Shown here in pieces: positions 40,724-64,000 of a DNA stretch of 64,000 bases. Within the stretch, counting starts at the first letter, position 1. Every line of letters starts with the position of its first letter. Below the pieces are notes generated by a model. That model was not told the origin of the DNA and made no database searches. It saw only the letters and a program-made list of their open reading frames with translations. The position numbers were made by a program, and so were the translations under genes. Source of the stretch: a virus; the IMG/VR virus record IMGVR_UViG_3300044691_000566, positions 32,001 to 96,000 of that record, one strand, 5' to 3'.

Positions 40724-42994
40724 GTGGACGAGGACGACGAGGGCTTCGAGCTGTGGCCGCAGGGCTGGCAGCCCGACACCCCTGTCCGCGAAACCATGCG
40801 GGAGCACCAGAAGGTGCACCGCAGTCCTTCACCGAGTGACCTCAAAGTCCGGCGGCGCAACCGCCGGACGACTGCTGGAGGAGACGTGCAGACACGCGCC
40901 CAACTCGTCCGCGCTCTGGGCAAGGCCGCGAGCCTGGCCGAGCAGGCGCGAATCGCCGACGAGATTGCCAAGATCGACAACGGCCTGCGCACCCAGGCCG
41001 CCCAGGACCGGGACCTGGATCTCGCCGACACCGTGGTCCGCGACACCCTCACCCCCGTGCGGGTCCACGAGCACCACACCGCCGCCACCGACTGGATGGG
41101 TGACGAGACCGCCCCCGACCCCCAGTGGCAGGCCAAGGTCGTCGCCGAGGCCGCCCTCTGGTACGGCCGCGTCCCCGACATGGTCAAGGAGGACCCGGAG
41201 GAGTACGCCATCCAGGCGCAGGGCATGGCCCGCCGCGTCGCCGGACCCTACGGCCTCCAGGCCGAGGCCGCCAAGACCGCGTTCTTGAGCTACGCCGCGT
41301 TCCTCCACCAGGGCGCCTCCGGCCTGGACCAGATCCAGCAGACCGTCGACCCCAGCAACGCACCGAAGACCACCCCGCTGCCGCCCGAGGTCTTCGACAA
41401 TTTTGCCCCCGAGGTCGACCCGATCAACGCGGGCGTCTCCGGCACCGAGACCTCCGAGCGCAACCCTCTCCTCCAGGAGATCGTCAACGGCGGCTCCGGC
41501 ATGGACGGCGGCGCCCCCGAAAAGCCCGGCGGCCACTCCGAGGGCAACGAGCTGTCCTGGAACCCCCCGTCCGGCATGCAGGCCGACACCGCCCCCGGCT
41601 GGTCCGACGGCGACCCCGGCGCCCCCGAGCAGGGCGGCAACCGCCCCGACTACACCAAGGCCGCCTCGCTCCGCTTCGTCCCCGGCATGGCCATCCAGCA
41701 CACGATGACCATGGACCAGTACCTCGCCGAACAGGCCAGCACCGCCCGCACTGCGAGCAAGGCCGCCAGCCTGGGAAAATGCGTCGGCTGCGGGACTGAC
41801 CTGTCGGTCGGGAACGCGGCCGACCGCGAGGGCAAGGTCTGCAAGGGTTGCGCCAAGACCGCCTCCAGGCGGCAGGCGGCCTCCGGGCTGCCGCAGATCC
41901 AGCAGACCGTGGACGCCGACAACCAGCCCTCCACCACCCCGCTGCCCCCGGAGGTCGCCTTCCCGCTGGACGACACCATGCAGCAGGAGTGGACCACCAA
42001 CGGCACCGGCAACGCGGCGCCCGGCGCCCCGCAGACCGCGCCCAAGGCCGCCAGGCGCAAGCAGGCCGACATGTGGGGCAACTCCGACGCCCCGCACGCC
42101 GTGGTCCAGCCCGACGTGGCCAACAACCCCACCACCACCCCGCCGACGGCCGCAGGCGCCGGGGGAGCGGCAGCGGGGAAGGCCGACGCCAACAGCGGGC
42201 AGGCCCCCACCTTTGCCGACAACTCCTCCTCCATCCCGGCCCCGGCCCAGCAGTACGCCGAGGGCTTCAGCGGCGTCGACCAGACCGCCAAAGCCCCCGC
42301 CGCCGACGTCCCCGCCTCCATGGCCGGACCCGGCAACGGCGTCACCCACGCGGGCACCAAGGTCTCCTCCCTGATCACCACCGCCGCCGAACGCGCCAAC
42401 ACCGACTTCAAGAAGGGCTACGGCTACGCCTCCCGGTGGACCCCGGGCACCCGCCTGGTCTCCACCGGCTCCAGCGAATTCGAAGCCGGACTGTACGCGG
42501 GCATCTCTGATAACCCCGGTTATCAGAAGGCGTTCGTGGAAGCCCACCGCGACGCGTCCACCGCCTTCCCCAAGATCGCCGCCCGCGTCGACCAGCACAA
42601 GCGCGTCACCGCCCGCGTCGTGGCCAACAACGAGGTCCCCTCCAACGGCCTCTATCTGCTGGCGTCCACCTCCATGGACCTCAACACCACCGCGCCCAAC
42701 ACCACCCCGGCCGCCGACGGCTCCACCCCCATCAACGGCCCCGGCCAGCCCGGCCCGCTCGCGGGGGAGCAGAACGCCGCAGCCCCCGGCGGACCGGCCC
42801 CCTACAACGGCGCCGAGCCCTACGGCACGCCGGTCGTCCCCGGCGCAGGACAGGCCCCTCAGGCGCCCAACCCGGCCGACGCCCTGGTCGGCGGTGGGGG
42901 AATGTCCACCGAGCAGCAGGTGATGGCGTCCCAGACCCTGGCCTTCCGCAAGCGCGTGCAGGCAACCCTGCTGGCCGAACGCCAGGGGAAGTGA
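40724..42994 (+). CDS. putative virion head/internal protein (alternative start 40886)
   Basis: First gene of the late cluster; internal duplication; many [KRH]-x-A motifs. Confidence 0.7.
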   Translation: MDEDDEGFELWPQGWQPDTPVRETMREHQKVHRSPSPSDLKVRRRNRRTTAGGDVQTRAQLVRALGKAASLAEQARIADEIAKIDNGLRTQAAQDRDLDLADTVVRDTLTPVRVHEHHTAATDWMGDETAPDPQWQAKVVAEAALWYGRVPDMVKEDPEEYAIQAQGMARRVAGPYGLQAEAAKTAFLSYAAFLHQGASGLDQIQQTVDPSNAPKTTPLPPEVFDNFAPEVDPINAGVSGTETSERNPLLQEIVNGGSGMDGGAPEKPGGHSEGNELSWNPPSGMQADTAPGWSDGDPGAPEQGGNRPDYTKAASLRFVPGMAIQHTMTMDQYLAEQASTARTASKAASLGKCVGCGTDLSVGNAADREGKVCKGCAKTASRRQAASGLPQIQQTVDADNQPSTTPLPPEVAFPLDDTMQQEWTTNGTGNAAPGAPQTAPKAARRKQADMWGNSDAPHAVVQPDVANNPTTTPPTAAGAGGAAAGKADANSGQAPTFADNSSSIPAPAQQYAEGFSGVDQTAKAPAADVPASMAGPGNGVTHAGTKVSSLITTAAERANTDFKKGYGYASRWTPGTRLVSTGSSEFEAGLYAGISDNPGYQKAFVEAHRDASTAFPKIAARVDQHKRVTARVVANNEVPSNGLYLLASTSMDLNTTAPNTTPAADGSTPINGPGQPGPLAGEQNAAAPGGPAPYNGAEPYGTPVVPGAGQAPQAPNPADALVGGGGMSTEQQVMASQTLAFRKRVQATLLAERQGK

Positions 42995-43004
42995 GGATTT
43001 CAAA

Positions 43005-44387
43005 ATGAGTGATCTGTGGACCGAGGCGTCCTACGACGCCGAGGCCGAATACCGGACCCGGAACCTGGAGATGGCCAAGCAGGCCAGCACCGGCATCTGG
43101 TCCTTCCTTGCCCTCGCCCAGTCCCCGCAGGAGTACGACGACCGGGTGGCCCTGGCCACCGACTCCATCACCGTGGCCGCCCACGCCTTCCAGGTCCCCG
43201 CCGACGACCTCCTGACGGTCTTCGCCCAGCGCTACGCCCTGCTGATGGAGGCCAAGGACAACCCCTTCGCCAACGATTCTCAGGACGACTCCGGGGACGA
43301 CTCCAAAGAATCCAAGGGCGACTCCCATGACGAGGACGACTCCCATGACGACTCTCATGACGACTCTCATGACGACTCCGATGACGACGAGAACGGCGAC
43401 GACACCGGAGACGGCGACGACGAAGACGACGACAAGGGCAACAAGGGCGACGGCGCCGACGACGTAGACGACCAGACCGACCCCGACGACGACGGCGACC
43501 AGGACAACGCCGACAACGACGACAAGGGCCAGTCCCAGGACCCCGACCAGGACGACGACGAGGCCAAGGGCACCACCCAGGGCATCTCCCCCTGGGGGAG
43601 CCGCTACGCCGCCCTGGCCCAGCGCATCGCAGCGGGCGAAAACCCGCTGGAATGGGGTGGTACCCCTTTCGTCGGTAGCCCCGCCCGCAAGCACGCGGCG
43701 GACGGGGCACCCGACACCCAGGCAGGCCCCGAAGGCCCCGCCGGACCCAACGAGCCCGCCCCGCCCGGAGAGCCCGGAACGGAACCCCCCACCGCCCCCG
43801 GCGGACCCGTCACGCCCCCGCAGGAGCCCCTCGTCCCCGGCATGAACGGCGGCATCGCCGAGACCACCAAACCCCGCCAGCTCCCCGCAGACGGCGGCAT
43901 GGACCCCACCACGGGCCCCGGCATGGGCATGGACGGCATCCCCGGCGAATTCAACCCCACCATGAACGGCGGCGACATCGAACAGGGAGCCGACAGCGGC
44001 CCCACCGCACCCGACGAAGCCCGCACCGCCAAACTCCGCACCATCACCGCCGAGGTCAAGCACTACAACCCCGCCCTCACCCCGGCCCAGTGCCACAACG
44101 TCGCCGTACGCGTCTACGAGCGGTACCTCCACAAGCACGCCGAGGACGTCAACCCGCTCCTGTACGGAGACCGGGGCCCCGTACCCGACGGGCCCCTCAC
44201 CGACGCCGTCAAAAAGTGGTCCCCCACCGACATGAAACCCCCCAAGACCACCCCCGGCATGCCCGGCGCAGCCCCCGGCGGATCAAGCACCCCCGGACTG
44301 CCCTCCGGAGGCGCGGGCGGAGGAGCAGGCGAACTGGCCGCCGGGGAAGGCACCGCCGCCGAACTCCTCCCCCTCCTGGCCCTGTAG
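43005..44387 (+). CDS. putative virion protein with Asp-rich tract
   Basis: D-rich and P/G-rich linkers; KQA, KHA and RTA motifs. Confidence 0.7.
   Translation: MSDLWTEASYDAEAEYRTRNLEMAKQASTGIWSFLALAQSPQEYDDRVALATDSITVAAHAFQVPADDLLTVFAQRYALLMEAKDNPFANDSQDDSGDDSKESKGDSHDEDDSHDDSHDDSHDDSDDDENGDDTGDGDDEDDDKGNKGDGADDVDDQTDPDDDGDQDNADNDDKGQSQDPDQDDDEAKGTTQGISPWGSRYAALAQRIAAGENPLEWGGTPFVGSPARKHAADGAPDTQAGPEGPAGPNEPAPPGEPGTEPPTAPGGPVTPPQEPLVPGMNGGIAETTKPRQLPADGGMDPTTGPGMGMDGIPGEFNPTMNGGDIEQGADSGPTAPDEARTAKLRTITAEVKHYNPALTPAQCHNVAVRVYERYLHKHAEDVNPLLYGDRGPVPDGPLTDAVKKWSPTDMKPPKTTPGMPGAAPGGSSTPGLPSGGAGGGAGELAAGEGTAAELLPLLAL
43320..43385 (+). repeat. 12-bp coding tandem repeat (DSHD)
   Basis: GACTC(C/T)CATGAC units. 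Confidence 0.7.
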
Positions 44388-44391
44388 AGCC

Positions 44392-44913: not shown

Positions 44914-44923
44914 GAGGTGGACA

Positions 44924-46822
44924 GTGGCCAAGATCAGACTGTGTGACCGCTGCGGAGGAAGATCATCCCCGCACATTCCCCGGGAGCGCGTGGGCGACCA
45001 GATGCTCTGCCAGGGCTGCGCACACGCCGTCGCCCGCCAGCGCACCGCCACCACCCCCACCACCGACTTCTGGCCCGGCGAACACACCCCCGAGGGAACC
45101 CACCCCCTCCTCGCCCCGCTGCCCCCCTCCGTCTGGCGCCGCTACCACAGCACCCAGCACACCGCAGCCCCCGACGCCCCCGGCTACCCCAACCCGCACC
45201 ACCAGGAGATGCACGGCCCCGACAGCCCAGCCGCCCACGAGTGGTACCACGGCACCAGCACGTCCTTCGAAGGACCCCCCAAAAGCGCCACCGAACTCAT
45301 GAACGACCACCAGTACTGGGGCAACTTCGGAGCAGGCGACTGGAACAACCACATCGGCTCCCACTGGACGTCCCTCCACGGCATGGCCAAGGGCTTCCTC
45401 GCCGCCAGCAGCGCAGGCAACCGCGTCATCCACGCCAAGCTCCACATGAAAAACCCCGTCAAATACAACTCCCTGGACCACATGACGCACGACGCCTACG
45501 AGCGCCTGTCCGCCTCCGGGGACATGCAAGACGGCGGAGAACACGTCGGCAAACACCAGGACGACGCAGGAGACCACTCCTGCTGCTCCGGAGCCCTCCT
45601 GCGCTACGCCAAGGGCGAGCACCGCTCAGACGGCAAATACGGCCTGGAACGCTACCGCGACTCCCTGCGCGCCTCCGGCCACGACGGCATCCTCATGCGC
45701 AACAACACCGACGACCCGATCGGCCACTGGAACGCCATCCCCCTGTCCGCCGACCACATACAGATCACCAACAGCGGCTGCAACCGCCCCCACCACGACC
45801 CCCGCGACCACGACGACACCGAATTCGAAGACCACCGCAGCAAGCTCCTCGGGAACTGGCAGGAAGAAAAGCCCTACCACCCCGCCCAGTACACCCACGG
45901 CAAGCCCCTGCCCGGCCCCGGAACCGTCGACCACGCACACACGCAGAAGAAGGCCGACACCTTCCCCCACCTCCAGCCCCACCAGAACCGTCCAGACGCC
46001 GACCCCCACACCCACGGCGAAAACCTGGACGAACTGCACGAGGAGAACGAACCCTCCTTCGGCGGCGAATACTGCGCGCACTGCGACGACCTCACCGACC
46101 ACACCACCGAGCAGCACGGCAAAGAACACGACCTACGGCACCTGGAAACCGAACACGGCTACGGACCCGACCACTACCTGCACCACGCACTCCAGGAAAT
46201 GAGCCCGCAGGAAGTGGCCGACCACCACGAACACGAACACACCACCGACTTCCCCAGCGGCGACTTCCCCACCCATACGCACTTCCCGAAGGAGGCCCGT
46301 ATGGCCGGGGCCATGAACAAAACCGCCCACGACAGCGGCGACGGCGCCACCATCTTCCACTGCCCCTTCTGCGGCTCCGGCCAGGTCATCGCCCGCAGCG
46401 ACCGCACCACCGAGTGCGAGTACTGCCACGCCTGCTTCACCGTCCAGGTCCAGCCCCAATTCCCCGCATTCCCCCAGACCATCGACGGAATGCCCATGCA
46501 GGTCCCCGGCATGCCCGGCCAGATCGGCGGACCCCCCGCAGCACCCCCCGGCGCCGACGGCACCATGCCCCCCGGCCAGGACCCCATGGCCGACCCCATG
46601 AACGGCGGCATGCCCGGCGAAGAAGACCCCGCAGCCCAGGACGAGCAGGACCCCGCCGCCGAAGAAGACAGCGCACCCCCCTTCGCCAAGGGCTCCATGC
46701 TCCGCACCGCCAGCGGCACCCCCCTGGACTGGGACAACTACCTCCGCCACCTCGCCATCAGGCACGCCGACAACGACCAGCGAGACGCCGTGATCGAACG
46801 CGTCCGGGGAGAACGACGATGA
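44924..46822 (+). CDS. multidomain protein with ART-PolyVal-like ADP-ribosyltransferase and Zn ribbons
   Basis: WYHGT...G.HWTS...A..F...V.HAKL.MKNP...LRASGHDGI; CxxC at both ends. Confidence 0.7.
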   Translation: MAKIRLCDRCGGRSSPHIPRERVGDQMLCQGCAHAVARQRTATTPTTDFWPGEHTPEGTHPLLAPLPPSVWRRYHSTQHTAAPDAPGYPNPHHQEMHGPDSPAAHEWYHGTSTSFEGPPKSATELMNDHQYWGNFGAGDWNNHIGSHWTSLHGMAKGFLAASSAGNRVIHAKLHMKNPVKYNSLDHMTHDAYERLSASGDMQDGGEHVGKHQDDAGDHSCCSGALLRYAKGEHRSDGKYGLERYRDSLRASGHDGILMRNNTDDPIGHWNAIPLSADHIQITNSGCNRPHHDPRDHDDTEFEDHRSKLLGNWQEEKPYHPAQYTHGKPLPGPGTVDHAHTQKKADTFPHLQPHQNRPDADPHTHGENLDELHEENEPSFGGEYCAHCDDLTDHTTEQHGKEHDLRHLETEHGYGPDHYLHHALQEMSPQEVADHHEHEHTTDFPSGDFPTHTHFPKEARMAGAMNKTAHDSGDGATIFHCPFCGSGQVIARSDRTTECEYCHACFTVQVQPQFPAFPQTIDGMPMQVPGMPGQIGGPPAAPPGADGTMPPGQDPMADPMNGGMPGEEDPAAQDEQDPAAEEDSAPPFAKGSMLRTASGTPLDWDNYLRHLAIRHADNDQRDAVIERVRGERR

Positions 46823-47022: not shown

Positions 47023-47327
47023 TCGCCAGGGAGGTCCTCGCCCTGATCGAGGGCACTCCCTCGATCACCCTGCCCGGCATCCCCGCCAACGGCATCAACT
47101 GCCAGGGATCCAGATTCCACTCCCCGCGCCCCATGCTCCTCCACCGCGTGGAACTGCCCCACAACCCCGGACAGCCCATCTACCTCTGCGGCACCTGCGC
47201 AGACAACTACCACCTCCTGCACGCCCTGGAACAGCCCCGAAAGGTGCCCTGGCCCGTCCGACGGTGCTTCGGAAACATGATCCGGGCCCTCGTGCCCCCC
47301 AACACCCAGGAGCACGACCGTGCCTGA
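47019..47327 (+). CDS. Zn-binding late protein
   Basis: C...H...LCGTC. Confidence 0.65.
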   Translation: MIAREVLALIEGTPSITLPGIPANGINCQGSRFHSPRPMLLHRVELPHNPGQPIYLCGTCADNYHLLHALEQPRKVPWPVRRCFGNMIRALVPPNTQEHDRA

Positions 47328-49425
47328 GACGCCCCCCACCCCGGACGAATGGAAGCAGGCCGTCTTCCAGCGCCTCGGCAAGGCCATGATCCGAGGAGGA
47401 GCAGCCCGGACCGACGGCACCCCCGAAGCCGCCCAGATGAAGGCCAACCGCCGCGTCGCCATGAAGAAGACCGGCGCCGCCACCCCCGCGACCGCCTTCG
47501 CCACCGGCCGCCCCCGCGACCCCCTCTTCTACTGGAAGCAGAACAACCTCCCCTACGAGGTCGACGACGAAACCCAGCTCCGGCAGCTCCGCATGTACTG
47601 CCGCCTCCTCTACCAGACCCACCCCGTCATCGCCTCATGCATCGACATCTACACCAAATACCCCCTCCTCGGCATGGAACTGCGCTGCAAAGACGAGCAG
47701 ATAACCCAGTTCTACGAAGACCTCTTCTTCACCGAGGACGGCCTCAACTACGACGAATTCCTCCTCGACGTCGGCCGTGAATACTGGACCGTCGGCGAAG
47801 CATGGCCCTTCGCCACCTTCAATGAATCCCTCGGCATCTGGGACGACGAAGAACTCCTCAACCCCGACGACGTCTCCGTACAACGCTCTGCATTCCTCAA
47901 AGAACCCCGCTTCCTCATCCGCCTCCCCGAAACCATCCGCGAAATCATGCAGAAGCGCTCCCCCGCCTGGGAGTACGAGAAGCTCATGCAGGTCTACCCC
48001 GAACTGTCCCAGTACGGCGGCGCCGACGACATGATGCCCGTCTCCAACATTCTGCTCCGCCAGATGAAATTCAAAGCCGACACCTTCTCCAAACGCGGCA
48101 TCCCCATCCTCATGCGCGCCATGCGAGCCGTCATGCAGGAAGAAATGCTCAACGCCGCCCAGGACGCCATTGCCGACCGCCTCTACACCCCCCTCGTCCT
48201 GGTCAAACTCGGCGCCAGCGCCACCGACCTGGGCACCGAAGTCCCCTGGATCCCCACCCCGGACGACCTCGAAGAGTTCATGGAGTCCCTGGACGCCGCC
48301 CTCGCCGCCGACTTCCGCGCCCTGGTGCACAACTTCGCCGTCACCATGGAACCCGTCTTCGGCCGCGAAAACATGCCCGACATGACCCCCGACTTCGAAC
48401 GCCTGGAAGACCGCATACTCCAGTCCTTCGGCATGTCCAAAACCATGCTCAACGGCGCCTCCTCCGGCGAGACCTACGCCGCCGACGCCCTCAACCGCGA
48501 CCTCGTCTCGCAGCTCCTCACCACCTATCAGGACATGATCAAGCGCCACTTCCACCAGCGCGCCCTCGTCGTCGCGGAGGCCCAGGAGCACTACGACTAC
48601 GACGAGCGCAACGGCAAGCGCTTCGTCAAAATGGAAGAAATCCTGGAAATCGACGAGGAAACCGGCGAAGAACGCATCGTCGAACAACCCAAACTCCTCG
48701 TCCCCGAACTGGTCATGCAGACCATGTCCCTCAGCGACGAATCCGCCGAACGCGAATTCTTCGAAGCCCTCCGCGCCGCCGGAGTCCCCATCTCGATGAA
48801 GACCCGCCTCATGGCCTCCGGCATCGACTTCGAAGACGAGGTGGAGCGCACCCAGGACGAGCAGGTCCAGCTCGCCATCGCCGAGCAGGAGACCCGCAAG
48901 AAGATCTACCAGGGCCTGAAGGACAAGGGCCTCCCCATCCCGGCGGACATGAAGATCGACTTCCAGCCCGCCGCCGAGCAGGCCCAGCCCCCGGCCATGC
49001 CCATGCCACCCATGCGCGCACCCATGCTCGGCACCGACGACATCACCCCCACCCCCAATCTGGCCCCCACCCAGATGGACCTCATGGCCGACGAGCCCGC
49101 CGGAGGCGTCCCCATGCCCGGCATGGACGCCCAACCCGTGGATGGCTCGGAGACCGGCGGCGAAGCCCCCGCCGAAGGCGCCCAGCGCCCGCCCGAGAGC
49201 GACGAGCAGCGCGGCGGCATGCCCAAGCCCGCCGCCCTCTTCCGGCAGTCCGAGCGCACCCGCAAGCTCGCCCGGGAGCTGTACCGGCCCCGCGAGAAGC
49301 CCGACGACGTACCGCTCAGCGAATGGGACCCCATCGGCAAGTTCAGCCAGCCCAAGGTGGTCGGCGTCCGTCGCCACATCGAGGTCGACCCGAAGACGTT
49401 CTACGAGGAGGCAGTAAATGCCTAA
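47320..49425 (+). CDS. putative portal protein
   Basis: 701 aa; R.YCR..Y..HPVI..CIDIY..YP, GEAWP, LLNPD.V, RG.P.L.R, PL.L.KLG pattern of large-phage portals. Confidence 0.7.
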   Translation: MPETPPTPDEWKQAVFQRLGKAMIRGGAARTDGTPEAAQMKANRRVAMKKTGAATPATAFATGRPRDPLFYWKQNNLPYEVDDETQLRQLRMYCRLLYQTHPVIASCIDIYTKYPLLGMELRCKDEQITQFYEDLFFTEDGLNYDEFLLDVGREYWTVGEAWPFATFNESLGIWDDEELLNPDDVSVQRSAFLKEPRFLIRLPETIREIMQKRSPAWEYEKLMQVYPELSQYGGADDMMPVSNILLRQMKFKADTFSKRGIPILMRAMRAVMQEEMLNAAQDAIADRLYTPLVLVKLGASATDLGTEVPWIPTPDDLEEFMESLDAALAADFRALVHNFAVTMEPVFGRENMPDMTPDFERLEDRILQSFGMSKTMLNGASSGETYAADALNRDLVSQLLTTYQDMIKRHFHQRALVVAEAQEHYDYDERNGKRFVKMEEILEIDEETGEERIVEQPKLLVPELVMQTMSLSDESAEREFFEALRAAGVPISMKTRLMASGIDFEDEVERTQDEQVQLAIAEQETRKKIYQGLKDKGLPIPADMKIDFQPAAEQAQPPAMPMPPMRAPMLGTDDITPTPNLAPTQMDLMADEPAGGVPMPGMDAQPVDGSETGGEAPAEGAQRPPESDEQRGGMPKPAALFRQSERTRKLARELYRPREKPDDVPLSEWDPIGKFSQPKVVGVRRHIEVDPKTFYEEAVNA

Positions 49426-52400
49426 GCACCTGACGGTCAACGACGAGTCCGCATTTATCACCGCTGGCCAGATCGGCGTGGCCAATGGGGTCGCGGGGCT
49501 GGGGTCGGACGGGAAGGTGCCGACGGCTCAGCTCCCCACGTCGGTGACCGGCTCGGTCATCTCTGTCGACGGCCTGATCGGCAACGTCGACCTGACCAGT
49601 CGGTATGCGCTGCTGAGCACCTCCTCGCGGGTGGACTGGATCAGTCCGCTGAACTACGAGGCGGTGGCCGACGGCACGACCGATGATCATGTCGCGATCC
49701 AGGCCGCGCTGAACGCGGCTCCGGCGGGTGGCGTGGTGTTCCTGGGCTCGCGGAAGTACGGGCTCGGCGCGAAGATCACGGTGCCGCCGTACGTGACGCT
49801 GCTGGGCGGTTTCGCCGACCGGGACGGTGCGGGAGACCCTGAGGCGGCTCTGATTCCGCTGCCCGGGTTTTCCAGCCCGATGGTGGTTGAGCTGGTCGAT
49901 CAGGTGACCGGTGCGTACGGCACGGTGAGCCGGGATGCGGTGCTGGCGAACTTCACCATTGACGGGCGGCTGCTGACGACGGAGTCCGTCAATGGTGTCC
50001 AGGCCAGTGGCCTTGTGCACGGCGTGCAGATGCAGAATGTGTCGGTTCACAAGGTGCGCGGGCACGCGGTGAGCCTGGTGAGCAACAGCAGCGGCAATCC
50101 GTACTCCTGGCACCTGAGCAACGTGCAGGTCTCCGGCAGCGGGTCGGTGACGACCTGGGACGGGTTCCACTTCATCGGTACGGATCACGTGTTCGTGGAC
50201 TGCCGTACGGAGGGGGTGCGGGGCAACGGTTTCTACCTCCAGGGGTGCCCGAACTCGTCGCTGACGGGGTGCCGTGCCGAGTGGTCGGCCCTCAACGGTT
50301 TCTACATCACCGGCTCGTACGGATCGGTGCAGGGCTCGGGCAGCATCCTGCTGTCCGGCTGCTCCACCGACCGCAGCTCACAGTACGGCGTGCTGATCGA
50401 CTCCACCGGTACCGGGCACGTCATCCTCAGCGGCCTGATGGCCCGCAGGGACGGCCGCAACGGTTTCCCGGGTACGGGCGGCGGCGGGTACGCGGCGGTG
50501 CGGGTGAGCAGCGCCACCACGCCGGTCCTGGTGACGGGTCTGTCGTGCTTCCCCGGGGTCGGCGACGACGGCCTGGGGGTGAACAGTCCCGAGCGCGGAA
50601 TCAGCGTGGCCAACAGCACGTACTGCATGGTGACGGGCTCCTACCTGCACGCGGATCTCACTCCGTATCACGACGGTGGCGGAAACGGGCAGTTCTACCG
50701 GGGACCGAACGTGGCCACGGCCACGGGGATCACCAGCGCGCCCGTCCGCTCGACGACGGAGCCCGCTGCCCTGTCCGGGCCGCTGACCCTCACGCAGGGC
50801 GGCTTCCTCGGCGTGCGGGGGGCGAGCGGCAATACGCTGCTGAACGGGCAGGTCACCGGGGACACCAACAACCGGGTGAACATCTCGGCTGGCGGAACGG
50901 TGACGTGGGGGTCGGGCGGTGCGGCCCCGGATACGACGCTGGCCCGGTCGGGGGTCAACCGGCTCGCGCTGTCCGGGGACGTGAGCCTGTTCGGGGTGGC
51001 CACCACCCCGCTGGGGTGGCTGAACGTCAAGGGCCCGGCGTACGGGGCGCTGGGTGACGGGACCACCGACGACACGGTGGCCATCCAGGCCGCCATCGAC
51101 GCGGCTGCGGCTGCCGGTGGCGGCACGGTGTACTTCCCCTACGGCGTCTACCGGACCTCGAACGCCCTGGTCCTCAAGACCGGCGTGACCCTGCGGGGGG
51201 TCCACTCCACGGCGTGGGCCAACCGCTTCACCACGGCGCTGTGCTCGCTGAAGGCGACGGCGTCGTTTGCGGGCGAATGCCTGATTTCGATGCTGGGGTC
51301 GGACATCACCGGGTCCGGGCACAACGAGGGCAATTGTCGGATCTTCGACCTGGAGCTGGACGGCTCCGCCATGAGTACCGGGTCGGTGTCCGGGATCCAT
51401 GCGCAGGGTGAGGTGCTGGACGTGATGCTCCAGCGCGTGATGGTCCGGAACATGACGCACAACGGTATCCATACGAATGTGGGGACGGGTACGAAAGCTC
51501 CGCACGACTGGAGCTTTGACAGCGTCGTCGCCTACCAGAACGCCCAGTTCGGCTTCTCCATGTCCATGACGGACGGCTACGTGCGCAACTGCGTGGCCAC
51601 CACCAACGGCAGCGACGGGTGGTTCCTCGGGCCGTTCGGGAGTCTCACCATGGACTCCTGCCAGGCGTTGTGGAACACCAACCACGGTCTGACCATCGGG
51701 GGCGGCAGCCAGGTCGGCAACCTGACCGTCAACAGCTTCCTGACCGACCGCAATGGTCACGACGGGATCCACCTGGGGCCGAGTTCCGGTTCGGGTTCTC
51801 CGCCGTTCGTGCTGACCGGCATAACGCTGAACCGGGACGGCCGGAACAGCAAGGCCGGTGGCGCCGGGTACGCGGGCCTGCGGATCGACGGGTGCGCCAA
51901 CCCGGTGATCATCAACGGGCTCAACGTCAACACGGGCGTGGACGACGACGCGACGGGCGTCAACAGCCCGCAGTACGGGATCCGGCTCACCGCCACCAAC
52001 GCCTACGTGCAGGTCAACGGCGGTTATGTGCACGGGGACACGCTGGGCTGGAACGACGACGGGACCAGCACCATCGTCCGTCGCTTCAACGTGGACGAGG
52101 CCACCGGGCTCAGGACCGCTCCGGTCTTCGCCTACGGCAACAGCGTCTCCACGTACGGCAGCTCCCTCGATGTCCCCGGTCACGCGATGGGGCTGCCGAG
52201 CCCCCGGGAGCACGGCGCCATCGCCTGGTCGGTCAACCCCCGGTCGGTCCGGTCCGACAAGCTCACTACCAGCGGCACCCTCTACCTGGCTGCACTGTAC
52301 GTTCCGCGCCCGGCGACGGCCGTGAAGCTCTTCTGGGGCATCAACACGGCCGGGGTGACCCCCACGGCCGGGCAGAACTTCGTCGGGCTCTACAGCGCCG

Positions 52401-52768: not shown

Positions 52769-55700
52769 ATGGGGCTGGGACGCCGCGAGGCCGCACACGA
52801 CACCGCGCTGTCGCGCAAGCAGGCCGGGGACTATCCCACCGACTACTCGGTGGGCCAGAAGGTCATGACGGTCGACGGCATCCCGGGCCGTGTGGAGGAG
52901 GTCATCTTCTCCCCGGCCATGGGGGAGGAGTACGACGTCGTCCTGGACGATGGGGCCGGGCGCGGGACGTATGCGCCCTCCCAGCTCTCCCCGTACGCCA
53001 CCAGCACCCACCAGGCCACCGGGACGCACCTGGCCTCGGACGACTACGAAGAACTTACGGACGTCTTGCGCGACAGGCCCGACATCGCCGTGCCGGTGCG
53101 GTTGGGGTCCCTCCAGGTGCAGGCGTCCACGGAGCCCCTGCCGGGATACGGCACGCCGGGGCCGCGTCCCGAGCCGGAGCAGCCGGATGACGACGAGCAC
53201 TACGACCCGCCGTGCGCCTACCCGCACGAGGGGCCGTGCCCGGTGTGGCCCGAACCCCACGACCACCACACGTCGTCCGTGCACCTCGCGATGCCCCCCA
53301 AGTCGGGGAAGCCCCCCGTGGGCGAGTACTCGTACAAGGTGCATCCCTCCAGCGGCCTGTTGACCGGCTACATCAACGGCGAAGAAGCCGGGTACATCAA
53401 CCACACCCCGTACCGGAACGAGGACGAGTACGGCCACTACGAGGACTACGGCGACGGGGACGACAACCACGAGCACCACCCGTTCAGTGCCGGTCACAAG
53501 GCGGGCGCCGTCAAGGTCCACATGCTGCACACCAACCCCGCGCACCGGGGATCCGGTGTCGCCTCGGCGATGATGGACTCGCTCTACCACCACTACCCGA
53601 ACGCCTGGATCAACCACGGCTACCGGACGGACAATGGGTCGACGTGGTGGAACAAGTACGACGAACCGGACCCCGGTCGCAACGTCCACAACGTGAGCCC
53701 CGACGACCACTCGCACCGGCTGAAGAAGCACTGGACGAGCCACTTCGATGTCGACGACGTGGTCAGCGACATGGACTCCCTCTCCCGCACCAACGAGGAG
53801 CAGGGTCACGAGGGCAACGCGCACCGGCAGTGGGATCAGACCGAGCACGGCGGGACCGGCGCCAGTCCTTCCTGTGAAGACTGTGACTCCGACAGGGACC
53901 ACTACTGCCACGACTGCGAAAAGTACTACCCGCACCGGTACGAGGGCGACACACACGGCGATGATTGCCCGAAGCGGTGCGAGGAGTGCGACTCCGACGG
54001 CGAGCACGAGTGCCCCACGTGCAAAGAGTGGGTCCATCACGACGACCTGGAGCAGCACGAGCAGGACCACCAGGACGAGCATGCGGCCGACGACGAGCAC
54101 GACCCCGTCCAGGTCGGCCTGCACAACTCCGTCACGGTCCCCCTCACCCGCAAAGAGCACGACTTCGTGCACAATCCGGCCATCCCGGCGGACAAGCGGG
54201 CCCACCACCTGCTGAACCGGATCGGGCGGGGCGCCATGCCCAGCCACGACTGGGACGTCGACCCCAAGACCTCGCACGAGATCGAGCACGACTCCCACGA
54301 GCAGACCCCCTACTCTCGGGGCCTGCACACGACGGTGACCCTGCATGCCCACCCGCTGAACGAGCACGAGGCCCAGGACGGTTTCGGCAACGACAGCTAC
54401 ACCCGTGAAGGCGAGCGGTCGCACTTCGACGCCGTCCCCACCAAGTTTCGGCTGAAGGGCATGTCCTGGGGTGACGGCCCCCGGGAGGCGGAACATCACC
54501 ACGAGTTCCCCGGCCACGGCCAGCGGGTGGCCACCGCGCCCAGCACGTACAACAGCCAGCCCGGGAACTACCCCCGCAGCCTCAAGCCCCTCCTGCGCCA
54601 GCCGGGCCACGAGCGCCCGGCCCCCGAGGTCCACCCCGAGCAGGGCAAACTCTTCGCCCGGAAGACGGCCGCGACCCGTGCCGACTTCCAGTTCGAGCAC
54701 GAGGACACCGACATCCGTGGCATCAAGCACGGCTACAAGAACCACCTGCGGGCCATCCACCCGGAGACGGGGGAGCACGCCGGGACGCTGACATACTTCG
54801 CGCCCACGCGTAAGGGTGCCCCGGTGATCGTGGACGATCTGACGACGTCGCACCCGGGCGCGGGCTCCGCGCTGATGGACGAGGTGGAATCCCGGCACCC
54901 GGGCAGCCGGATTCAGCACGGCGTGGACAAGCCCATGAGCAAGGGCAAGCCGCACTACGACCACTCGGACTATGGCAAGGCCACCGACTGGTCCGCCCAC
55001 TACCCGAACCTGCCGGAGCAGGTCCACCGGGGCCTGAACGTGCGCCTGGAGGGTTCCGACGCCCGAGCGGTGACGCGCGGGGAGGGGTCGGCCGCCGACC
55101 ATGCCCAGATCCTGCACAGCGCCTTGCGCGATGGCGGACCTCTCGGCATGCACTGGTCGTCGGACGAGGAGACCAGCCGGAACTTCGCACACCGCAACAT
55201 TCGGGACCCCCGTAAGGACGTGCCGGTAATCCTGCACGCCGACCGGCCCGCCCAGAAAGACCTCGAAACCCGGCCGAACGTGCTCAAGAACAACGGGGTG
55301 TGGATGCACGACTACGAGCACGGCGACGCCGAGGTGCCGGTGCGCCGGGGCCGGTCGGTGAACCTCCGGGGGATCTCCTGGAAGCCGGACGCCCCGCACT
55401 CGGAGGCCGACGCCAGCGGCTGGGTGCACCACACCTTCGGCGAGGGCAGTCAGCACACTGCCGCTCTGTACGCGGCCGTCGGGGGCGAACCGGTCTACCG
55501 GGGCTTGAACCTCGGGCTGGCGAGCGACGAGGACGTGGAGCATCTGCACCGGGACCCGGTGGGGTACCTGAACCAGAAGGGCTTCCGGCCCCACGAGGCG
55601 GGCATCCACTGGTCCACTGACCCGTACACCGCGCACAACTTCGCCCTGGCCCACGATGAGGACGACGACGACGCCACTCCGCACACCCACGGGGTGATCC

Positions 55701-57871
55701 TGCACGGCCGGGCCGAGCCTCAGCACGTTGTGCAGCACGGTACCCCGGAGTGGGACGACTACGCCGATCAGTACGAGATCCACGGGGAGAACAGTCCCGA
55801 GCAGGAGCGCACCGTACGCACGGGTGCCCCCGTGCAGATCACCCACGCCACGGCGGTCTCCAAGCCGGTATGGGGCGACGAGGGCCGTGAGACCGAGGTG
55901 CCCTGGGGGAGCCAGGTCACCGCCAACCAGCAGGACGGCTTCCTCGCCGACACCGCCGACGAGGCCCCCGAGGAGGAGATCGTCTCCCAGGGCGCCTTCG
56001 ACCCGTACGCCATCCTCACCACCGCTGCCGCCGATCCGGAATTCCGCTTCCACGTCACGGCCGCCTGGGCCGACGTCCGCCGCAAGGCGAAGCGGATCCG
56101 CTCCGAGGGCGGCGTACGCATCACCCTGGCCACCGACGGCGTGGTCTTCGGCGAGGTCAAGGGCGACCACCACGTCTACGAGACCGGCGTACAGCGCTTC
56201 CCCGGCACCAAGCACTCCGTGGCCACCTACACCTGCGGCTGCAAGTGGGGCGCCTACCACTGGGGCGCCCCTGACGACTTCAGCCACTTCGCCGGACGTA
56301 TGTGCTCCCACGCCCTCGCCCTCCAGTACGAGGCCCAGTCCCGGGGCATGTTCGGCCGGGACGTGGAGGTCGACTCCACCAAGCCCGAGTGGGTCCCGAA
56401 GAAGGTCGTCCTCCGCTACGACATCGACGACGGCACCAACCGGATGGTGCGCTCCAGCACGAAGACGGCAGCAGCAGAGCCCAATCCGCACGGTCTGTAC
56501 CTGCGTTTCGGCAGGTGGCCCCACGACGAGCGCTCCACCAACAACATCACGGGTGCGAAGGAAGACGGGGTCAGCGTCTACGACCTCGATCATCACGGCC
56601 GCCCCATGGACCCGGACCCGGACGACAGTCGGACCAACATCGACGACGGGGACCGCAACTGGCCCAAGGAGGAGATGCACGGCCGGGTGGGCAAGGCCGA
56701 GCGCGACCGCAAGTGGGGCAATGACCATCCTGACCGTCAGGCCCACATCGTGAGGGGCGACATCGCAGGCTTCGGTCACGACAATGAGCCGCTGCTCAAC
56801 AACGTCGAGCGGATCGGCGACTGGATCGATCACCGGCATCTGTTCTTCAGCGGCAAGCCGCATCCCCTCGCCCGCAGTGAGGACCACGACGACTATGAGC
56901 CGCCGGAGGAGGAGCCCCAGCACCGTACGGCTGCCCTGGAGGTCACCCCGCTGGTGGCCCTCGCGCAGTGGTCCCGTGCGCAGGGCGACGACCCGGAGGA
57001 GTTCGCGTTCCTCCTGGGCATGCACGGCCTGACGGCCGCGATCAGCTCCCCCTGGGGCGAGCCGCAGGCCCCGGCCGCCAACTACACCCCGGGACCGACC
57101 AAGCCCCGCAACCCCGCCGAAAACCCCGGATCCACCGGCTGGGCCACCCAGTCCGACCCCGACAACTGGGATTCGATCAACCCCAACGACCTGGGGGACC
57201 GCGTCGCGGCCCTGGACGAGTTCCTGTTCGAGGGTGCCATCCCGCAGGAGATCGCCCAGTCCGACGACCCGATGGCCTCCTCCCCGGGCACTGAGGACAC
57301 CCCCCTGGAGAACGGCGTGACGGCGTACTGGCGGCACATGGAGGACGTGGCGATGACCACGGAGGCCATCTCGATGCTGGGGGAGCAGGACGGCCCCCTC
57401 TGGCCGTCCGGGCCCAAGGGCGGCCGGGGCGGTCCGATGCCGCCGGGACACGCGCAGATGCCGGAGCACGAGGAGCTGACCCCCGGAGCCGAGGCGGATC
57501 TGCATGTGCAGCCGGAGGGGGCGCTTCCGTACACCGACGGCGACGGCCCGGACCTGACCGACGACGAGTCCCTCACCCCGTCCCGGACCGCCTCCCTGGG
57601 CAGCAGCATCCTGGAACAGTTCCAGGCCACCGCCTCCCACTTGGCCCCCGGCGGCTCCACCAGACCCTCCGGACGCGGGGGTGTCGCGGCGGAGATCGCC
57701 GCCCAGGCCCGGGAAACCCTCAGCAAGATCGCGCTGAAGGACTACAGCCCCGCAGAGCAGGCTGCGATCATCAATGAGGGTGTCAACGTCAGGGCCTCCA
57801 ACCTGGACCGCCTGGACGTGACCGGCACGCACTACGAGTCTCAAGAAGACGAGGACGGGATATGGCCGTAA
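52769..57871 (+). CDS. 1700-aa polyvalent protein: SH3-like, 2 GNAT, Zn cluster, 2-3 ADP-ribosyltransferase-like domains, SWIM
   Basis: [11 protein letters not shown] and HPGAGSALM (GNAT); VHRG..HWSSD..AEV and VYRG..HWSTD..EQE (R-S-E ART); CGC...CSH (SWIM). Confidence 0.75.
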
Positions 57872-59786: not shown

Positions 59787-59787
59787 G

Positions 59788-60627: not shown

Positions 60628-60640
60628 GCAGGGGGCCAAC

Positions 60641-60916: not shown

Positions 60917-60918
60917 TC

Positions 60919-60952
60919 CTGTCGCAGACAGCCCGAGCCCTTTAAAGGGGTG
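60919..60952 (+). promoter_or_regulatory. candidate late promoter
   Basis: CTGTC-N20-AAAGGGGTG. Confidence 0.7.
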
Positions 60953-60974
60953 AGGACGACCCCTAGGAGGGCGC

Positions 60975-61811
60975 ATGACCGTCAACGGAATCGACGTCTC
61001 CGCGTACCAGAACAGCACCTACTCCACTGCGGGCCTCGGCTTCGTCATCGTCAAGGCCACCGAGGGCACCAGCTATGTGAACCCCGCGCACGCCGCGCAG
61101 ATCCAGCACGGCCGCGACGCCCACCTGGTTCCCGGCCACTACCACTTCGTCCGGCCGGGCGACATGAAGGCCCAGGCCGACTTCTTCCTCCAGCACGCCG
61201 CCCCCGGGCCCGGTGACGTCCTCGCCTTCGACTGGGAGGACAAGGCCGTCTCCGGCGGCGACAAGGACGTCTGGCTCAAGTACGTGCAGGCCAAGGCGCC
61301 CACGCACCGCGTGCTGCTGTACTGCGACCTGGACTTCTGGACCAACCGCGACCACACCGGTTTCACCGCCGACGGCCTGTGGATCGCCGATCCCAGCTCC
61401 CCGGCCGGGCACCCCGCCGTCAAGCACGCCTGGGTGATGCACCAGTACAGCTCCAGCGGCGGCATCGACCACAACGTGGCCGCGTTCGCCGACACCGCAG
61501 CCCTGCGCACCTGGGCCGCCAAGGGCACCCCCGCCGTCCAGCCGCACCCGCAGCAGCACCAGCCCTTCCCGGGCGCCTCGTGGTTCACCACGGGCCGCAG
61601 GAGCCCGATCGTGGCCGCCATGCACGACCGCCTGGTGGCCGTCGGCTGCAACCACTACACGAGCAACGCCAACAAGGACGTCATCGGCTCCGGCGACGTG
61701 GCCTCCTACCAAGCCTGGCAGCACAAGCTGGGCTACACCGGCCCGGCAGCCGTCTGGCCGCCCGGCCAGACGAGCTGGGACAAACTCCAGATCCCGAAGG
61801 TGGCGCGATGA
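60975..61811 (+). CDS. GH25 endolysin with C-terminal cell-wall-binding domain
   Basis: GIDVSAYQ, KATEG..Y.NP, G.YHF, DWE, HQY, D.N. Confidence 0.92.
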   Translation: MTVNGIDVSAYQNSTYSTAGLGFVIVKATEGTSYVNPAHAAQIQHGRDAHLVPGHYHFVRPGDMKAQADFFLQHAAPGPGDVLAFDWEDKAVSGGDKDVWLKYVQAKAPTHRVLLYCDLDFWTNRDHTGFTADGLWIADPSSPAGHPAVKHAWVMHQYSSSGGIDHNVAAFADTAALRTWAAKGTPAVQPHPQQHQPFPGASWFTTGRRSPIVAAMHDRLVAVGCNHYTSNANKDVIGSGDVASYQAWQHKLGYTGPAAVWPPGQTSWDKLQIPKVAR

Positions 61812-62074
61812 CGATCCCGACCCCGGTCCCGGCTCCCGACCACCGCGCGTCCACCGCGTGGAAAATCGAGGCGAAGGTCATCGCCTCCACGACGGCCACC
61901 TTCGCCGTCTCCCTCGTCCTGGCCGTCCTCAACGCCGTCCAGGGCAACCACGACCTGCTCGGCTCGATGCCCACCGCCCTCCAGACGGTCATCCTGCTCA
62001 TCGTCCCCACCGCCATCACCTTTCTGGGTGGATACCTAGCTCGTCATACGCCCCGGGCACCCGCCGGAAGCTAG
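61808..62074 (+). CDS. holin
   Basis: IEAKV.AST...2 TM...GY.A.HTPR, directly after the endolysin. Confidence 0.8.
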   Translation: MTIPTPVPAPDHRASTAWKIEAKVIASTTATFAVSLVLAVLNAVQGNHDLLGSMPTALQTVILLIVPTAITFLGGYLARHTPRAPAGS

Positions 62075-62083
62075 CGTTCAACA

Positions 62084-62158
62084 CGAAGGACCCCGGGATC
62101 CCCCACGTTCCCCGGGGTCCTTTGCTGTCTGCCCCCCGGCCAGTACCGGGAAGGGGTG
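62084..62158 (+). promoter_or_regulatory. terminator + candidate late promoter
   Basis: AAGGACCCCGGG/CCCGGGGTCCTT; CTGTC(62125)-N20-GAAGGGGTG. Confidence 0.75.
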
Positions 62159-62168
62159 GAGGTGGCGA

Positions 62169-64000
62169 ATGCTCAAGTACGCGAGCGCCCAGATCATGAC
62201 GGCCGTGATGGCCCCGCAGGACGCGGGCCGCCGTGAGCTGCGCCGGTTCAGCCACCGGCACCACTTTTCGTATGAGGTGCGACCCGGGTACCTGTACGTG
62301 CGCTCTCGCGCCATCTCCAGCCGCTGCAACGACAACTTCGACGAATTCCCCGCCGAAGAACTCGAAAAGGGATACCGGACTTTCATCGGCAAGCCGGTCT
62401 TCGTCAATCATTCGAACGAGGACCACCGCCGGGCCCGGGGTGTGATTATCGACGCGGTCCTGCACAAGGACAGCAACCGCGACGGAACGAAAGACTGGTG
62501 GGTCGAAGTCCTCCAGGAGGTCGACGCCCTGCGCTTCCCCCGCCTGGCCGCCGAGATCCTCAACGGCAACATCGCGCGGACTTCGATGGGCACCGACGTG
62601 TCCCACAGCATCTGCTCCGCCTGCGGCAACCGGGCCACCACTCCCGCCGAATACTGCACGCACATTCCGGCATCAAAAGGAATGATGCTCTACCGGACCA
62701 CCGCGTCCGGCCAGAAGGTCGGCGAAGTCATCCGCGAGACCTGCTACGGCCTGAAGTTCTTCGAGAACTCGCTGCTCGTGGAGCCCCCGGCGGATCCGAC
62801 GGCGTATTTCACCGGGGTGGACGACCGGGGCCTGAAGGGCACCGCCATCCAGCGCGACCAGGCATCCCGCGCCGCCGACCCCTTCTTCTATGCCTCCACC
62901 CAGAAGACCGCCGCGCAGGTCCCGGGGCTGTCCTGGGACGAGGTCGGTGAGCGGCACCCCGAGATCTACGGCGACTCGGAGATCCACGGGGAGCGCGCCG
63001 AGGGCGCTGACGGGGAGATGATCGGCTCGGCGGCCAACGACCTGGCCCACTCCACGCCGGACGACCCCGACGCCGAGGCGCACTCGATCCACGACCTGAC
63101 CTTCCACCGCGCGATGATCGACCCGCACGCCATCGACCACAAGCGGAACGGCATCAGCGACGGCCGGGTGGCCTCCGCCATCCAGGGCTACAGGGAGCAC
63201 CCGGAGCAGATGCCGCCGGTCGTGCTCGTGCACCGGCACGGCGTCTTCCAGGTCGCCGACGGCCACCACCGCACCGAGGCCGCCAAGGCTGTGGGAATGA
63301 GCAAGATCCCCGCCTACGTGACCAAGTCGCCCTACCCCCGCACGCCCAGCGGCTGGGATGCCAAGGGCCCCTACCACGGGGCGGAGACGACCCGCTGGAG
63401 CCCGCCGCAGGTCCGGCCCAGGAAGGACCCGGGGCAGACTCCCGAAAGTTCCGGGTACACCCAGGACCGCATGTTCGAGGCCGCGAAGAAGGACCCCCGC
63501 TTCGCCGAAGTCGGCCTGAAGCAGGACGACAAGGGCCACTACGTGACGACGCACCGTGCGCGCTCCGACTCCTACCCGACCCCCGAAGCCATCCCCCAAT
63601 CGGTCGTGGACAAGATCGCCGCCACTGGCTCCCGCACCACCCTGGACGAGCTGATGACCGAGGGCACCAAGCAGGCCGCCCAGCAGTACCCCAACCCAGC
63701 GGACCACCCGTGGTTCAAGGAGGCCGGGCTCAGTCACGAAAACGTCATCCACCACTGGGACCTGGCCTCCCCCGAGGAGAAGGCACAGGGCAAGCGCTGG
63801 TACCCCGACGCGCACCTGGTGGCTCGATCCATTGCCCGACTGGACACCCGCATCAAGACCGACAAGGAGGCCGCCCACAAGGGCGGCGGGGTCCTGAGCG
63901 CGTACAGCCCGCAGCAGAACTGGTGGGCCAACCAGCACAACGCGGCGCGGTCCTTCCACGAGCAGCGGGCCCTGGGCAAGGGCGAAGGCATCATGATCAT
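62169..64000 (+). CDS. prohead maturation protease fused to ParB/Srx-like and further domains (3' truncated; absent from the ORF track)
   Basis: Translated by hand: N.N.D.F...EL...Y.TFIGKPVFVNH...G.I.D...TSMG.....CS.CGN...YC.H...FFE.S..V.PPAD; later PPVVLV...VADGHHR. Confidence 0.8.
   Translation, partial: MLKYASAQIMTAVMAPQDAGRRELRRFSHRHHFSYEVRPGYLYVRSRAISSRCNDNFDEFPAEELEKGYRTFIGKPVFVNHSNEDHRRARGVIIDAVLHKDSNRDGTKDWWVEVLQEVDALRFPRLAAEILNGNIARTSMGTDVSHSICSACGNRATTPAEYCTHIPASKGMMLYRTTASGQKVGEVIRETCYGLKFFENSLLVEPPADPTAYFTGVDDRGLKGTAIQRDQASRAADPFFYASTQKTAAQVPGLSWDEVGERHPEIYGDSEIHGERAEGADGEMIGSAANDLAHSTPDDPDAEAHSIHDLTFHRAMIDPHAIDHKRNGISDGRVASAIQGYREHPEQMPPVVLVHRHGVFQVADGHHRTEAAKAVGMSKIPAYVTKSPYPRTPSGWDAKGPYHGAETTRWSPPQVRPRKDPGQTPESSGYTQDRMFEAAKKDPRFAEVGLKQDDKGHYVTTHRARSDSYPTPEAIPQSVVDKIAATGSRTTLDELMTEGTKQAAQQYPNPADHPWFKEAGLSHENVIHHWDLASPEEKAQGKRWYPDAHLVARSIARLDTRIKTDKEAAHKGGGVLSAYSPQQNWWANQHNAARSFHEQRALGKGEGIMI

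Follow-up and report, generated by a model that had tools for sequence, protein, structure and literature searches.

A basic-[Thr/Ala]-Ala-[Ala/Ser] peptide at the module joints of giant late proteins of an uncultured phage, a candidate cleavage site of its prohead protease

We examined the late genes of an uncultured actinobacterial phage, IMG/VR virus record IMGVR_UViG_3300044691_000566, in a stretch of 64,000 nucleotides (hereafter the window; record positions 32001-96000) where a short peptide ending in alanine recurs in several large proteins and in the open reading frame (ORF) of the prohead protease. The record is a complete virus genome of 159,746 bp (~159.7 kb) with direct terminal repeats. 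Within the window, GC content is ~67% and the + strand holds nearly all genes. The genome falls in a large clade of uncultured phages with high GC content; the nearest cultured relatives of the phage, the cluster C mycobacteriophages (Bixzunavirus), are distant kin of this clade. The late block in the window comprises three proteins that match no family (779, 460, and 632 amino acids, aa), the portal, a fibre, a 1700-aa protein termed P0004, and the protease ORF. The features of P0004 are as follows, where an arrow stands between residue P1 and residue P1' of each site.

52769..57871, + strand: 1700-aa polyvalent-type protein P0004, with modules at aa 1-119, 120-634, 635-898, 899-1234, 1235-1388, 1389-1608, and 1609-1700
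53114..53128, + strand: joint 1, QVQA↓S, aa 116-120
54659..54673, + strand: joint 2, RKTA↓A, aa 631-635 (KTA at 54662)
55451..55465, + strand: joint 3, QHTA↓A, aa 895-899 (HTA at 55454)
56459..56473, + strand: joint 4, TKTA↓A, aa 1231-1235 (KTA at 56462), left edge of the inserted module 1235-1388
56921..56935, + strand: joint 5, HRTA↓A, aa 1385-1389 (RTA at 56924), right edge of the same module
57581..57595, + strand: joint 6, SRTA↓S, aa 1605-1609 (RTA at 57584)
57593..57868, + strand: conserved 92-aa C-terminal module

Relatives were collected by an IMG/VR scan with the protease domain, which returned 37 related loci, most of them on contigs of up to ~155 kb. The recognizable domain content of P0004 amounts to a weak GNAT match and DUF6098; Pfam scans of single modules (E <= 0.5) gave few matches, and many modules are without a family. 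The pieces of the protein nevertheless each find relatives separately. When P0004 was cut for comparison at aa 121, 634, 898, 1234, 1388, and 1608 (the P1 Ala of the first joint being aa 119), homology to relatives stopped at the joints. A preliminary description of this DNA had placed eight basic-x-Ala triplets of P0004 at domain edges. Five of them (KTA 632, HTA 896, KTA 1232, RTA 1386, and RTA 1606) are exact module edges by comparison with relatives, but KQA17 (52817), HLA172 (53282), and RVA586 (54524) have no module-edge support, and the edge at joint 1 had been overlooked.

Comparison among relatives also shows that modules swap along with their joints. In L004/L005, two overlapping genes (1383-3425 and 3422-5665) take the place of P0004, and the split between them falls exactly at the RKTA↓A joint. 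The motif is gone from both new ends: the upstream gene closes with …LFASRQSDGLGLEDSIG and the downstream gene opens with VTYRKVSVVNFDFQH. Module 1235-1388, which is DUF6098-like, is an insert with the motif on both flanks, and other relatives carry other inserts in the same place, flanked by VKEA↓G...HHHA↓K, ...HHQA↓S, or ...AAHA↓S. At joint 1 the relatives read LQTTA↓A or LQTMA↓A; at joint 3, six relatives have Q/R-H-[T/K/R/E]-A with differing sequence downstream; and joint 6 is PRAA↓S or PHTA↓S in close relatives. In line with the earlier proposal that the motif would let modules be exchanged, inserts, a gene split, and module exchange among relatives all coincide with joints.

How specific is the peptide? 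All coordinates in the preliminary description, including those of the eight sites in the 1700-aa ORF and the two in the protease ORF, proved correct. Its [KRH]-x-A motif is indeed enriched in the five late proteins that it named, but weakly (94 occurrences versus 69.5 +/- 7.0 in shuffled sequences), and as written it is too loose: it occurs at a rate of 1.96% in these proteins versus 1.37% in early ORFs (Fisher p 0.005), and 606 times in the proteome of 45,540 residues. Because the 1700-aa protein alone has 28 such triplets, the eight listed there were a selection. The tighter motif [KRH]-T-A-[AS] occurs 11 times in the five proteins versus 0.6 +/- 0.7 in shuffles, and early ORFs have 2 versus 1.3 expected. 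When k-mers were counted without bias across the giant proteins, TAA and RTA ranked first among 3-mers and RTAS among 4-mers, none of them prominent in the remaining proteome. Outside the window, another giant protein, the sixth (1625 aa, genome 14400-19277), contains GNATs and a 2H phosphoesterase and has four more tight-motif sites; its orthologous joints pair RTA↓S with RQA↓G, RTA↓A with RQA↓A, and KTA↓T with KEA↓A. An Ala-ending basic motif at the joints therefore stands, but the free middle position does not: P2 is preferentially Thr or Ala, and P1' Ala or Ser.

To set module boundaries independently of the motif, we took breakpoints from all-against-all BLAST of 86 proteins of >=550 aa from the 37 related phage contigs. 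Of the [KRH][TA]A[AS] sites, 42% lay within 8 residues of a breakpoint, versus 18% for random placement (z 6.8), and controls were flat (21% for the pattern lacking the basic residue and 17.5% for that lacking Ala). The 3-mers most enriched near breakpoints include TAA, KTA, and RTA. Around Ala residues near breakpoints, odds ratios were 2.1 for Lys at P3 (p 2e-7), 1.63 for Thr at P2 (p 4e-5), and 1.65 for Leu at P5, p-values that are optimistic because relatives share sites by descent and independence is overstated.

At the DNA level the sites are diverse, with 44 distinct 12-mers among 56 sites, and selection therefore acts on the peptide. Given how widely the codon strings at the sites differ, we rejected a DNA-level motif such as a recombination site. 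Codon choice is nonetheless skewed: in five genomes, ACG encodes the Thr of motif sites in 25/40 cases (62%) versus 27% genome-wide, and CGT encodes the Arg in 16/36 versus 9% genome-wide, CGT and AGG being the rarer choices. The rarer codons at joints (52769-57871 and genome 14400-19277) may reflect slow translation there or common descent of some joints.

The same peptide is found in the protease ORF, whose features are these.

62169..64000, + strand: protease fusion ORF, 1231 aa, of which the first 610 lie in the window; it ends at genome position 97864
62169..62873, + strand: prohead protease domain, aa 1-235
62832..62849, + strand: LKGTAI, at the place of the conserved post-protease site and degenerate in this phage
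62901..62915, + strand: QKTA↓A, aa 245-249 (KTA at aa 246, 62904), directly ahead of the ParB-like module and 24 residues past LKGTAI
63666..63680, + strand: TKQA↓A, aa 500-504 (KQA at aa 501), directly ahead of DUF7178

The fusion runs from the protease domain through a ParB/Srx-like region (a weak match in its ParB-like part), a small THRARS unit, DUF7178, a GNAT-like region, and Zn ribbons to a Pro/Gln/Gly-rich tail. The protease domain matches phrog_18299, "head maturation protease" (E 8e-24), and has no match at E <= 1 to Pfam protease families (S77/S78/S80 type) in any of 29 members, nor a match in a PDB sequence-profile search. An AlphaFold2 (AF2) model was built with the 29-domain alignment and reached a predicted local distance difference test score (pLDDT) of 78.5; a version built without the alignment (pLDDT 37) was not used. 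Its best structural match was T4 gp21 (5jbl_B; Z 10.1, root-mean-square deviation 2.4, 126 residues), followed by herpesvirus assemblins at Z 6.4-9.2, and BFVD gave 161 matches at E <= 0.001, including annotated prohead proteases and proteins of Bacillus phage G (gp19), phiRSL1, and PaBG. The modelled domain thus has the seven-stranded barrel fold of gp21 and assemblin. As the fold is known but neither a Pfam model nor a PDB profile matches, the domain represents a distinct sequence family of known fold. Consistent with the role of a prohead protease, its gene lies in the head block, with the portal on one side and the scaffold and capsid genes on the other.

In relatives, the protease domain is followed by a position-conserved site: after …PPADPTA-x-F-L-G-V-D-x-x-G-L come K-A-A-[A/S], K-T-A-[A/S], or similar, giving the form G-L-x-K-[A/T]-A-[A/S]. 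The preliminary description had set KTA 62904 after the protease domain and KQA 63669 before the last domain. Both do stand at module starts, but it is LKGTAI, not KTA 62904, that occupies the conserved position. At the TKQA↓A joint, relatives have EAA↓A or AQA↓P. The ORF itself varies from 563 to 2013 residues in the 37 related loci.

We then extended the comparison with a profile search of 1.84 billion cluster representatives, which found 3102 members of the protease family, 595 of them at E <= 1e-30. Among the best 150 of the 3102, the protease domain was N-terminal in all, in proteins of 249-2422 residues. A [KR][TA]A[AS] site fell within 30 residues past the protease domain in 45% of 146 representatives versus 3.5% of control windows. 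In the cargo parts of the family (117,685 residues), [KR]TA[AS] occurred 108 times versus 11.5 +/- 3.5, an excess of ~9-fold, and the ratio was flat for a reversed motif (1.08), Asp/Glu at P3 (0.79), Gly at P1 (0.56), and Asp/Glu at P1' (1.11). The sequence logo adds Arg/Lys at P2' and Ser/Arg at P4. Collectively, these data support a motif that is both sequence-specific and direction-specific.

Sites also occur within the protease domain. Relatives L003-L008, L013, and L015 have R-R-T-A-S or H-T-A-S at about aa 173-180, in a loop joining two strands (…MLYRRTASGQKVGE…), where the phage itself reads TTAS (62694-62705), with T at P3. This loop recalls the internal cleavage site of cytomegalovirus assemblin.

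Beyond the protease fusion (which ends at genome position 97864) follow a 324-aa scaffold-like protein, a cement protein (PF23968), and the capsid protein (phrog_2522). The scaffold-like protein (genome 98339-99313) is a single, unshuffled protein encoded by a separate gene in this phage. At 50 and 36 residues before its acidic C-terminus (…DAESLFD), the sequences V-[T/S]-K-A-A-[A/S]-R and V-P-R-x-A-[A/S] are conserved in nearly all of 27 relatives. In the uncultured relative L020 (9863-14515, 1550 aa) and in gp103 of the cluster C phage I3 (L039 11950-16176, 1408 aa), protease, cargo, and a scaffold-like end form one ORF, an arrangement in which protease and scaffold share a reading frame that is not seen in this phage. 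The motif is thus found in three settings: between modules of several giant late proteins, behind the protease domain, and in the tail of the scaffold. The second and third are the places of the herpesvirus sites; in this phage the degenerate LKGTAI occupies the post-protease place, with a full site 24 residues on.

The C-terminal module of P0004, aligned from 18 relatives, ends in an acidic run followed by Trp/Leu/Phe. The tails of the P0004 and scaffold families (genome 98339-99313) share this ending (…DEDGIWP, …EDLF, …DAESLFD) and are nearly identical in some relatives. The P0004 module could possibly be an anchor to the procapsid, and the acidic-Trp/Leu/Phe tail may be a shared docking peptide. 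As a head-targeting signal to scan for, the tail was dropped as too unspecific (27/750 ORFs match). A complex prediction of the capsid protein with the C-terminal module of P0004 gave no answer (score 0.00) and was used neither for nor against binding.

The remaining late genes of the window are as follows.

40655..42994, + strand: 779-aa late protein P0001, no family match
43005..44387, + strand: 460-aa late protein P0002, no family match, with RKHA↓A (43686-43700) and ARTA↓K (44019-44033)
44924..46822, + strand: 632-aa late protein P0003, no family match, with modules at aa 1-81, 82-~460, and 466-632
47320..49425, + strand: portal protein (phrog_2833, E 4e-156), without a [KRH]TA site
49418-52702: 1094-aa minor tail/fibre protein (phrog_11699) with a pectate-lyase-like right-handed beta-helix (PF12708, E 2e-21)

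The portal places the candidate proteins in the head-gene block. In relatives the three parts of P0003 lie inside ORFs of 1534-1551 aa or stand alone, as in a 177-aa ORF of G005 that matches aa 467-553. The edges of homology are the two joints of P0003, QHTA↓A (45155-45169) and NKTA↓H (46316-46330); the protein has one more site, LRTA↓S (46700-46714). P0001 carries GKAA↓S (40919-40933), HHTA↓A (41072-41086), TKAA↓S (41654-41668), ARTA↓S, SKAA↓S, AKTA↓S, and RRQA↓A (41867-41881), and the type of site at aa 90, 141, 335, and 406 is kept in the homologues of 3-4 relatives. P0001 also has an internal repeat (aa ~215-250 and 405-440; A-S-G-L-[D/P]-Q-I-Q-Q-T-V-D-x-x-N-x-P-x-T-T-P-L-P-P-E-V) that is kept in four relatives, with an x-A-A↓S-type site ahead of each copy. 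P0002 is the weakest member of the set, with partial homologues only among relatives. It contains a tract of ~100 residues that are nearly all Asp, Ser, His, Gly, or Glu (DSHDD repeats), followed by a Pro/Gly-rich region. This protein might act as a DNA mimic or as an acidic protein inside the head. Elsewhere, a 1308-aa ORF at the genome start was first counted as a giant cargo protein and then dropped, as it is a DnaE-type DNA polymerase whose lone RTAA was taken as chance.

The 1094-aa fibre is likely a depolymerase for a host surface polymer. No GenBank phage matched the portal and fibre region in a megablast search. Between the 1700-aa protein and the protease, a 278-aa ORF (60975-61811) begins MTVNGIDVSAYQ and looks like a GH25-type muramidase (lysin).

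We judge it probable that the joints are prohead-protease cleavage sites that release the modules of polyvalent proteins. Because the linker peptide of the giant proteins also follows the capsid protease and marks the scaffold tail, it is probably this protease that cuts the strings apart. The protease would read Lys or Arg (sometimes His) at P3, Thr or Ala at P2 (with others tolerated), Ala at P1, and Ala or Ser at P1', and would cut after P1. One cut would free the protease from its own passengers, comparable to the herpesvirus release site, and a second would take off the last 36-50 residues of the scaffold, comparable to the maturation site. Further cuts, made inside the procapsid, would split the giant proteins into their individual modules, and the products would be packaged and later injected. 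Because each module carries its own joint, modules could be inserted, lost, or moved between carriers without losing their processing. Cutting of the sites, the bond that is broken, the protease responsible, and the packaging and injection of the products are what we infer from this pattern.

Several observations weigh against this proposal. A search of the literature found no measurements of whether proteins of this phage or its relatives are cut, packaged, or injected. The catalytic residues are candidates by invariance: His81 (VNHS, 62403-62414) and Ser139 (TSMG, 62580-62591) are invariant in 29 aligned sequences and are putative counterparts of the catalytic residues of gp21 or the assemblins. 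The capsid protein lacks a site and is apparently not cut, which is compatible with the proposal yet provides no positive control. P3 (K, R, H, Q, or M) and P2 (T, A, Q, H, E, or K) vary widely, and the recognition rule is therefore loose. The motif by itself cannot suffice, because it is also present inside folded domains, as HYR-[R/K]AAA in DUF7178 and as RTAS within the protease domain of relatives. Nor is it at every edge. Joint 1, QVQA↓S, lacks the basic P3; distant relatives have no motif before the C-terminal module of P0004; and relatives free of the insert read VRSSSLEVTPL uninterrupted from a CxC...CxH region, taken as a SWIM finger by pattern only, to module 1389-1608. Finally, the complete relative G003 (L085-L092) has no excess of strict [KR]TA[AS] (4 versus 5.8 expected), with protease and scaffold homologous to those described here; its joints may use a different P2/P3 preference. 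The descent shared by sites, which inflates the breakpoint statistics, belongs on the same side.

Three other explanations of the pattern were considered. Recombination alone could give the association of motif and breakpoint, and the motif might then be an uncut linker or domain-capping peptide that travels with recombining modules and is kept for folding, spacing, or flexibility, leaving the giants as intact multi-enzyme chains. The lean toward rarer codons (CGT/AGG for Arg, ACG for Thr) fits such a linker, as rare codons are sometimes seen at domain linkers. We consider this reading unlikely, given that the motif is kept in the tail of the unshuffled scaffold protein, holds a fixed place past the protease domain in nearly half of the diverse representatives, and is lost where the gene splits at a joint (L004/L005). 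It is also strictly directional in requiring both a P1 Ala and a basic P3, neither of which a flexible linker needs, and the DNA encoding it is not conserved (44 distinct 12-mers for 56 sites).

Alternatively, the joints may be cut by a different enzyme, either one of the host or a phage protease that escaped recognition. It could act before assembly, in the cytoplasm, or after injection, once a new cell is infected. The motif is tied to the prohead protease by co-occurrence and by analogy to assemblin alone, and processing after delivery has been proposed for polyvalent proteins in some systems (PMC5512222). This explanation is distinctly improbable in our view: the metallopeptidase (MPTase, PF18818) of polyvalent proteins was not found in a six-frame search of the whole genome, no further peptidase family was found in the giant proteins scanned, the motif stands at the classic self-site and scaffold sites of a prohead protease, and it tracks the protease family across 146 representatives whose hosts are probably varied. 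That the pattern is a by-product of Ala/Thr/Arg-rich composition and selective reading draws some support from how common the loose triplet is, from its small excess, and from the 3/8 sites listed for the 1700-aa protein that found no support. The tight motif, however, exceeds shuffles 9-18x, both for this phage and for 143 independent proteins; ratios for the reversed motif and for versions with one residue changed remain at 0.6-1.1, and the motif heads the unbiased k-mer lists. Breakpoint, shuffle, and control counts already disfavour this explanation, and we find it hardly credible.

With cleavage by the prohead protease as the favoured reading, a broader proposal can be made, which we hold tentatively. 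A widespread family of capsid proteases (at least 595 clusters at E <= 1e-30, including cultured cluster C phages) may have herpesvirus-like Ala specificity and use a universal separator peptide, such that any enzyme module flanked by it could be attached to the protease or to a carrier protein, loaded into the procapsid, released at maturation, and injected. If this is true, it would amount to plug-and-play delivery of host-takeover or anti-defence enzymes. If the capsid protease cuts the joints, the giant "hypothetical" proteins found in a large group of actinobacterial phages might be understood as collections of enzymes that act separately and whose mature ends can be predicted. The processing of polyvalent proteins that have no metallopeptidase would also be explained. 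A gp21-fold phage protease with the Ala specificity of assemblin and analogues of its release and maturation sites would, in addition, strengthen the parallel between phage and herpesvirus assembly.

Giant phage proteins of this multi-enzyme kind have been described before under the name polyvalent proteins, together with the idea that they are cut and delivered. Iyer, Burroughs, Anand, de Souza, and Aravind (2017) report such proteins from phages and from conjugative elements, propose that they enter the host along with the DNA and are divided into units, and assign the processing to an embedded zincin-like metallopeptidase that is common but not universal (PMC5512222). The proteins described here resemble them in being giant late-gene products with unrelated enzyme domains (GNAT, ParB-like, 2H phosphoesterase, and Zn ribbons) and strong mosaicism, and P0004, the protease fusion, and the 1625-aa protein each combine several unrelated domains in one polypeptide. 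They differ in the MPTase, which this genome lacks by the search above, and in the joint peptide shared with the prohead protease and scaffold, which is not described in the passages of that paper that were searched (PMC5512222).

Cluster C phage I3 has the same gene order of giant protein, protease fusion, cement protein, and capsid protein in gp102-gp105, annotated "hypothetical protein": gp102 (1266 aa), gp103 (1408 aa, with a protease domain 44% identical), gp104, and the major head protein gp105. Its P0004 homologue, gp102, has the same excess of the motif (11 [KRH]xA[AS] versus 3.35 +/- 1.72). In I3, the protease fusion ends in a scaffold-like tail, and the post-protease site departs from G-L-x-K-A-A-S. 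A literature search for virion proteomics or N-terminal data from cluster C mycobacteriophages (I3, Bxz1) found nothing usable.

Among phages with measured cleavage, the prohead proteases of T4 (gp21), phiKZ (gp175), 201phi2-1, and SPN3US (gp245) process many head proteins and their own C-terminus, and always cut after Glu, at the motifs A-X-E, S/A/G-X-E, and L/I-X-E (PMC5694885, PMC10052503). The likeness lies in the fold and in the proposal of one protease and one short motif for many head-internal or ejection proteins as well as for the protease's own C-terminus. P1 is Glu in those substrates and Ala at the joints of this phage, where Asp/Glu is not enriched in flanking positions. Nearly all cleavages identified for SPN3US gp245 take off N-terminal propeptides (PMC10052503), whereas many internal joints would here free separate modules. 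Cleavage is measured in those phages and predicted in this one, whose protease is itself fused to cargo.

The herpesvirus pUL26 protease-scaffold precursor (assemblin) offers a parallel in layout. Pseudorabies assemblin cuts after Ala, at the release site YLQA-T and the maturation site VQA-S, and the maturation cut takes off 37 C-terminal residues that bind the capsid protein (PMC4498786). The phage protease shares the predicted fold, and its candidate sites share a P1 Ala (with Ser or Thr after it in pseudorabies virus), one site right after the protease domain, and one near the scaffold C-terminus, at 36 or 50 residues where pseudorabies virus has 37. The fusion of protease and scaffold is shared by L020 and I3, with passengers in between; in this phage the two are separate genes. 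In the phage, unlike the herpesviruses, unrelated enzyme modules totalling up to ~1000 residues separate the protease from the scaffold position, and the motif also punctuates other giant proteins. P3 is aliphatic in the herpesvirus sites and basic in those of the phage, a layout that otherwise reproduces the assemblin scheme.

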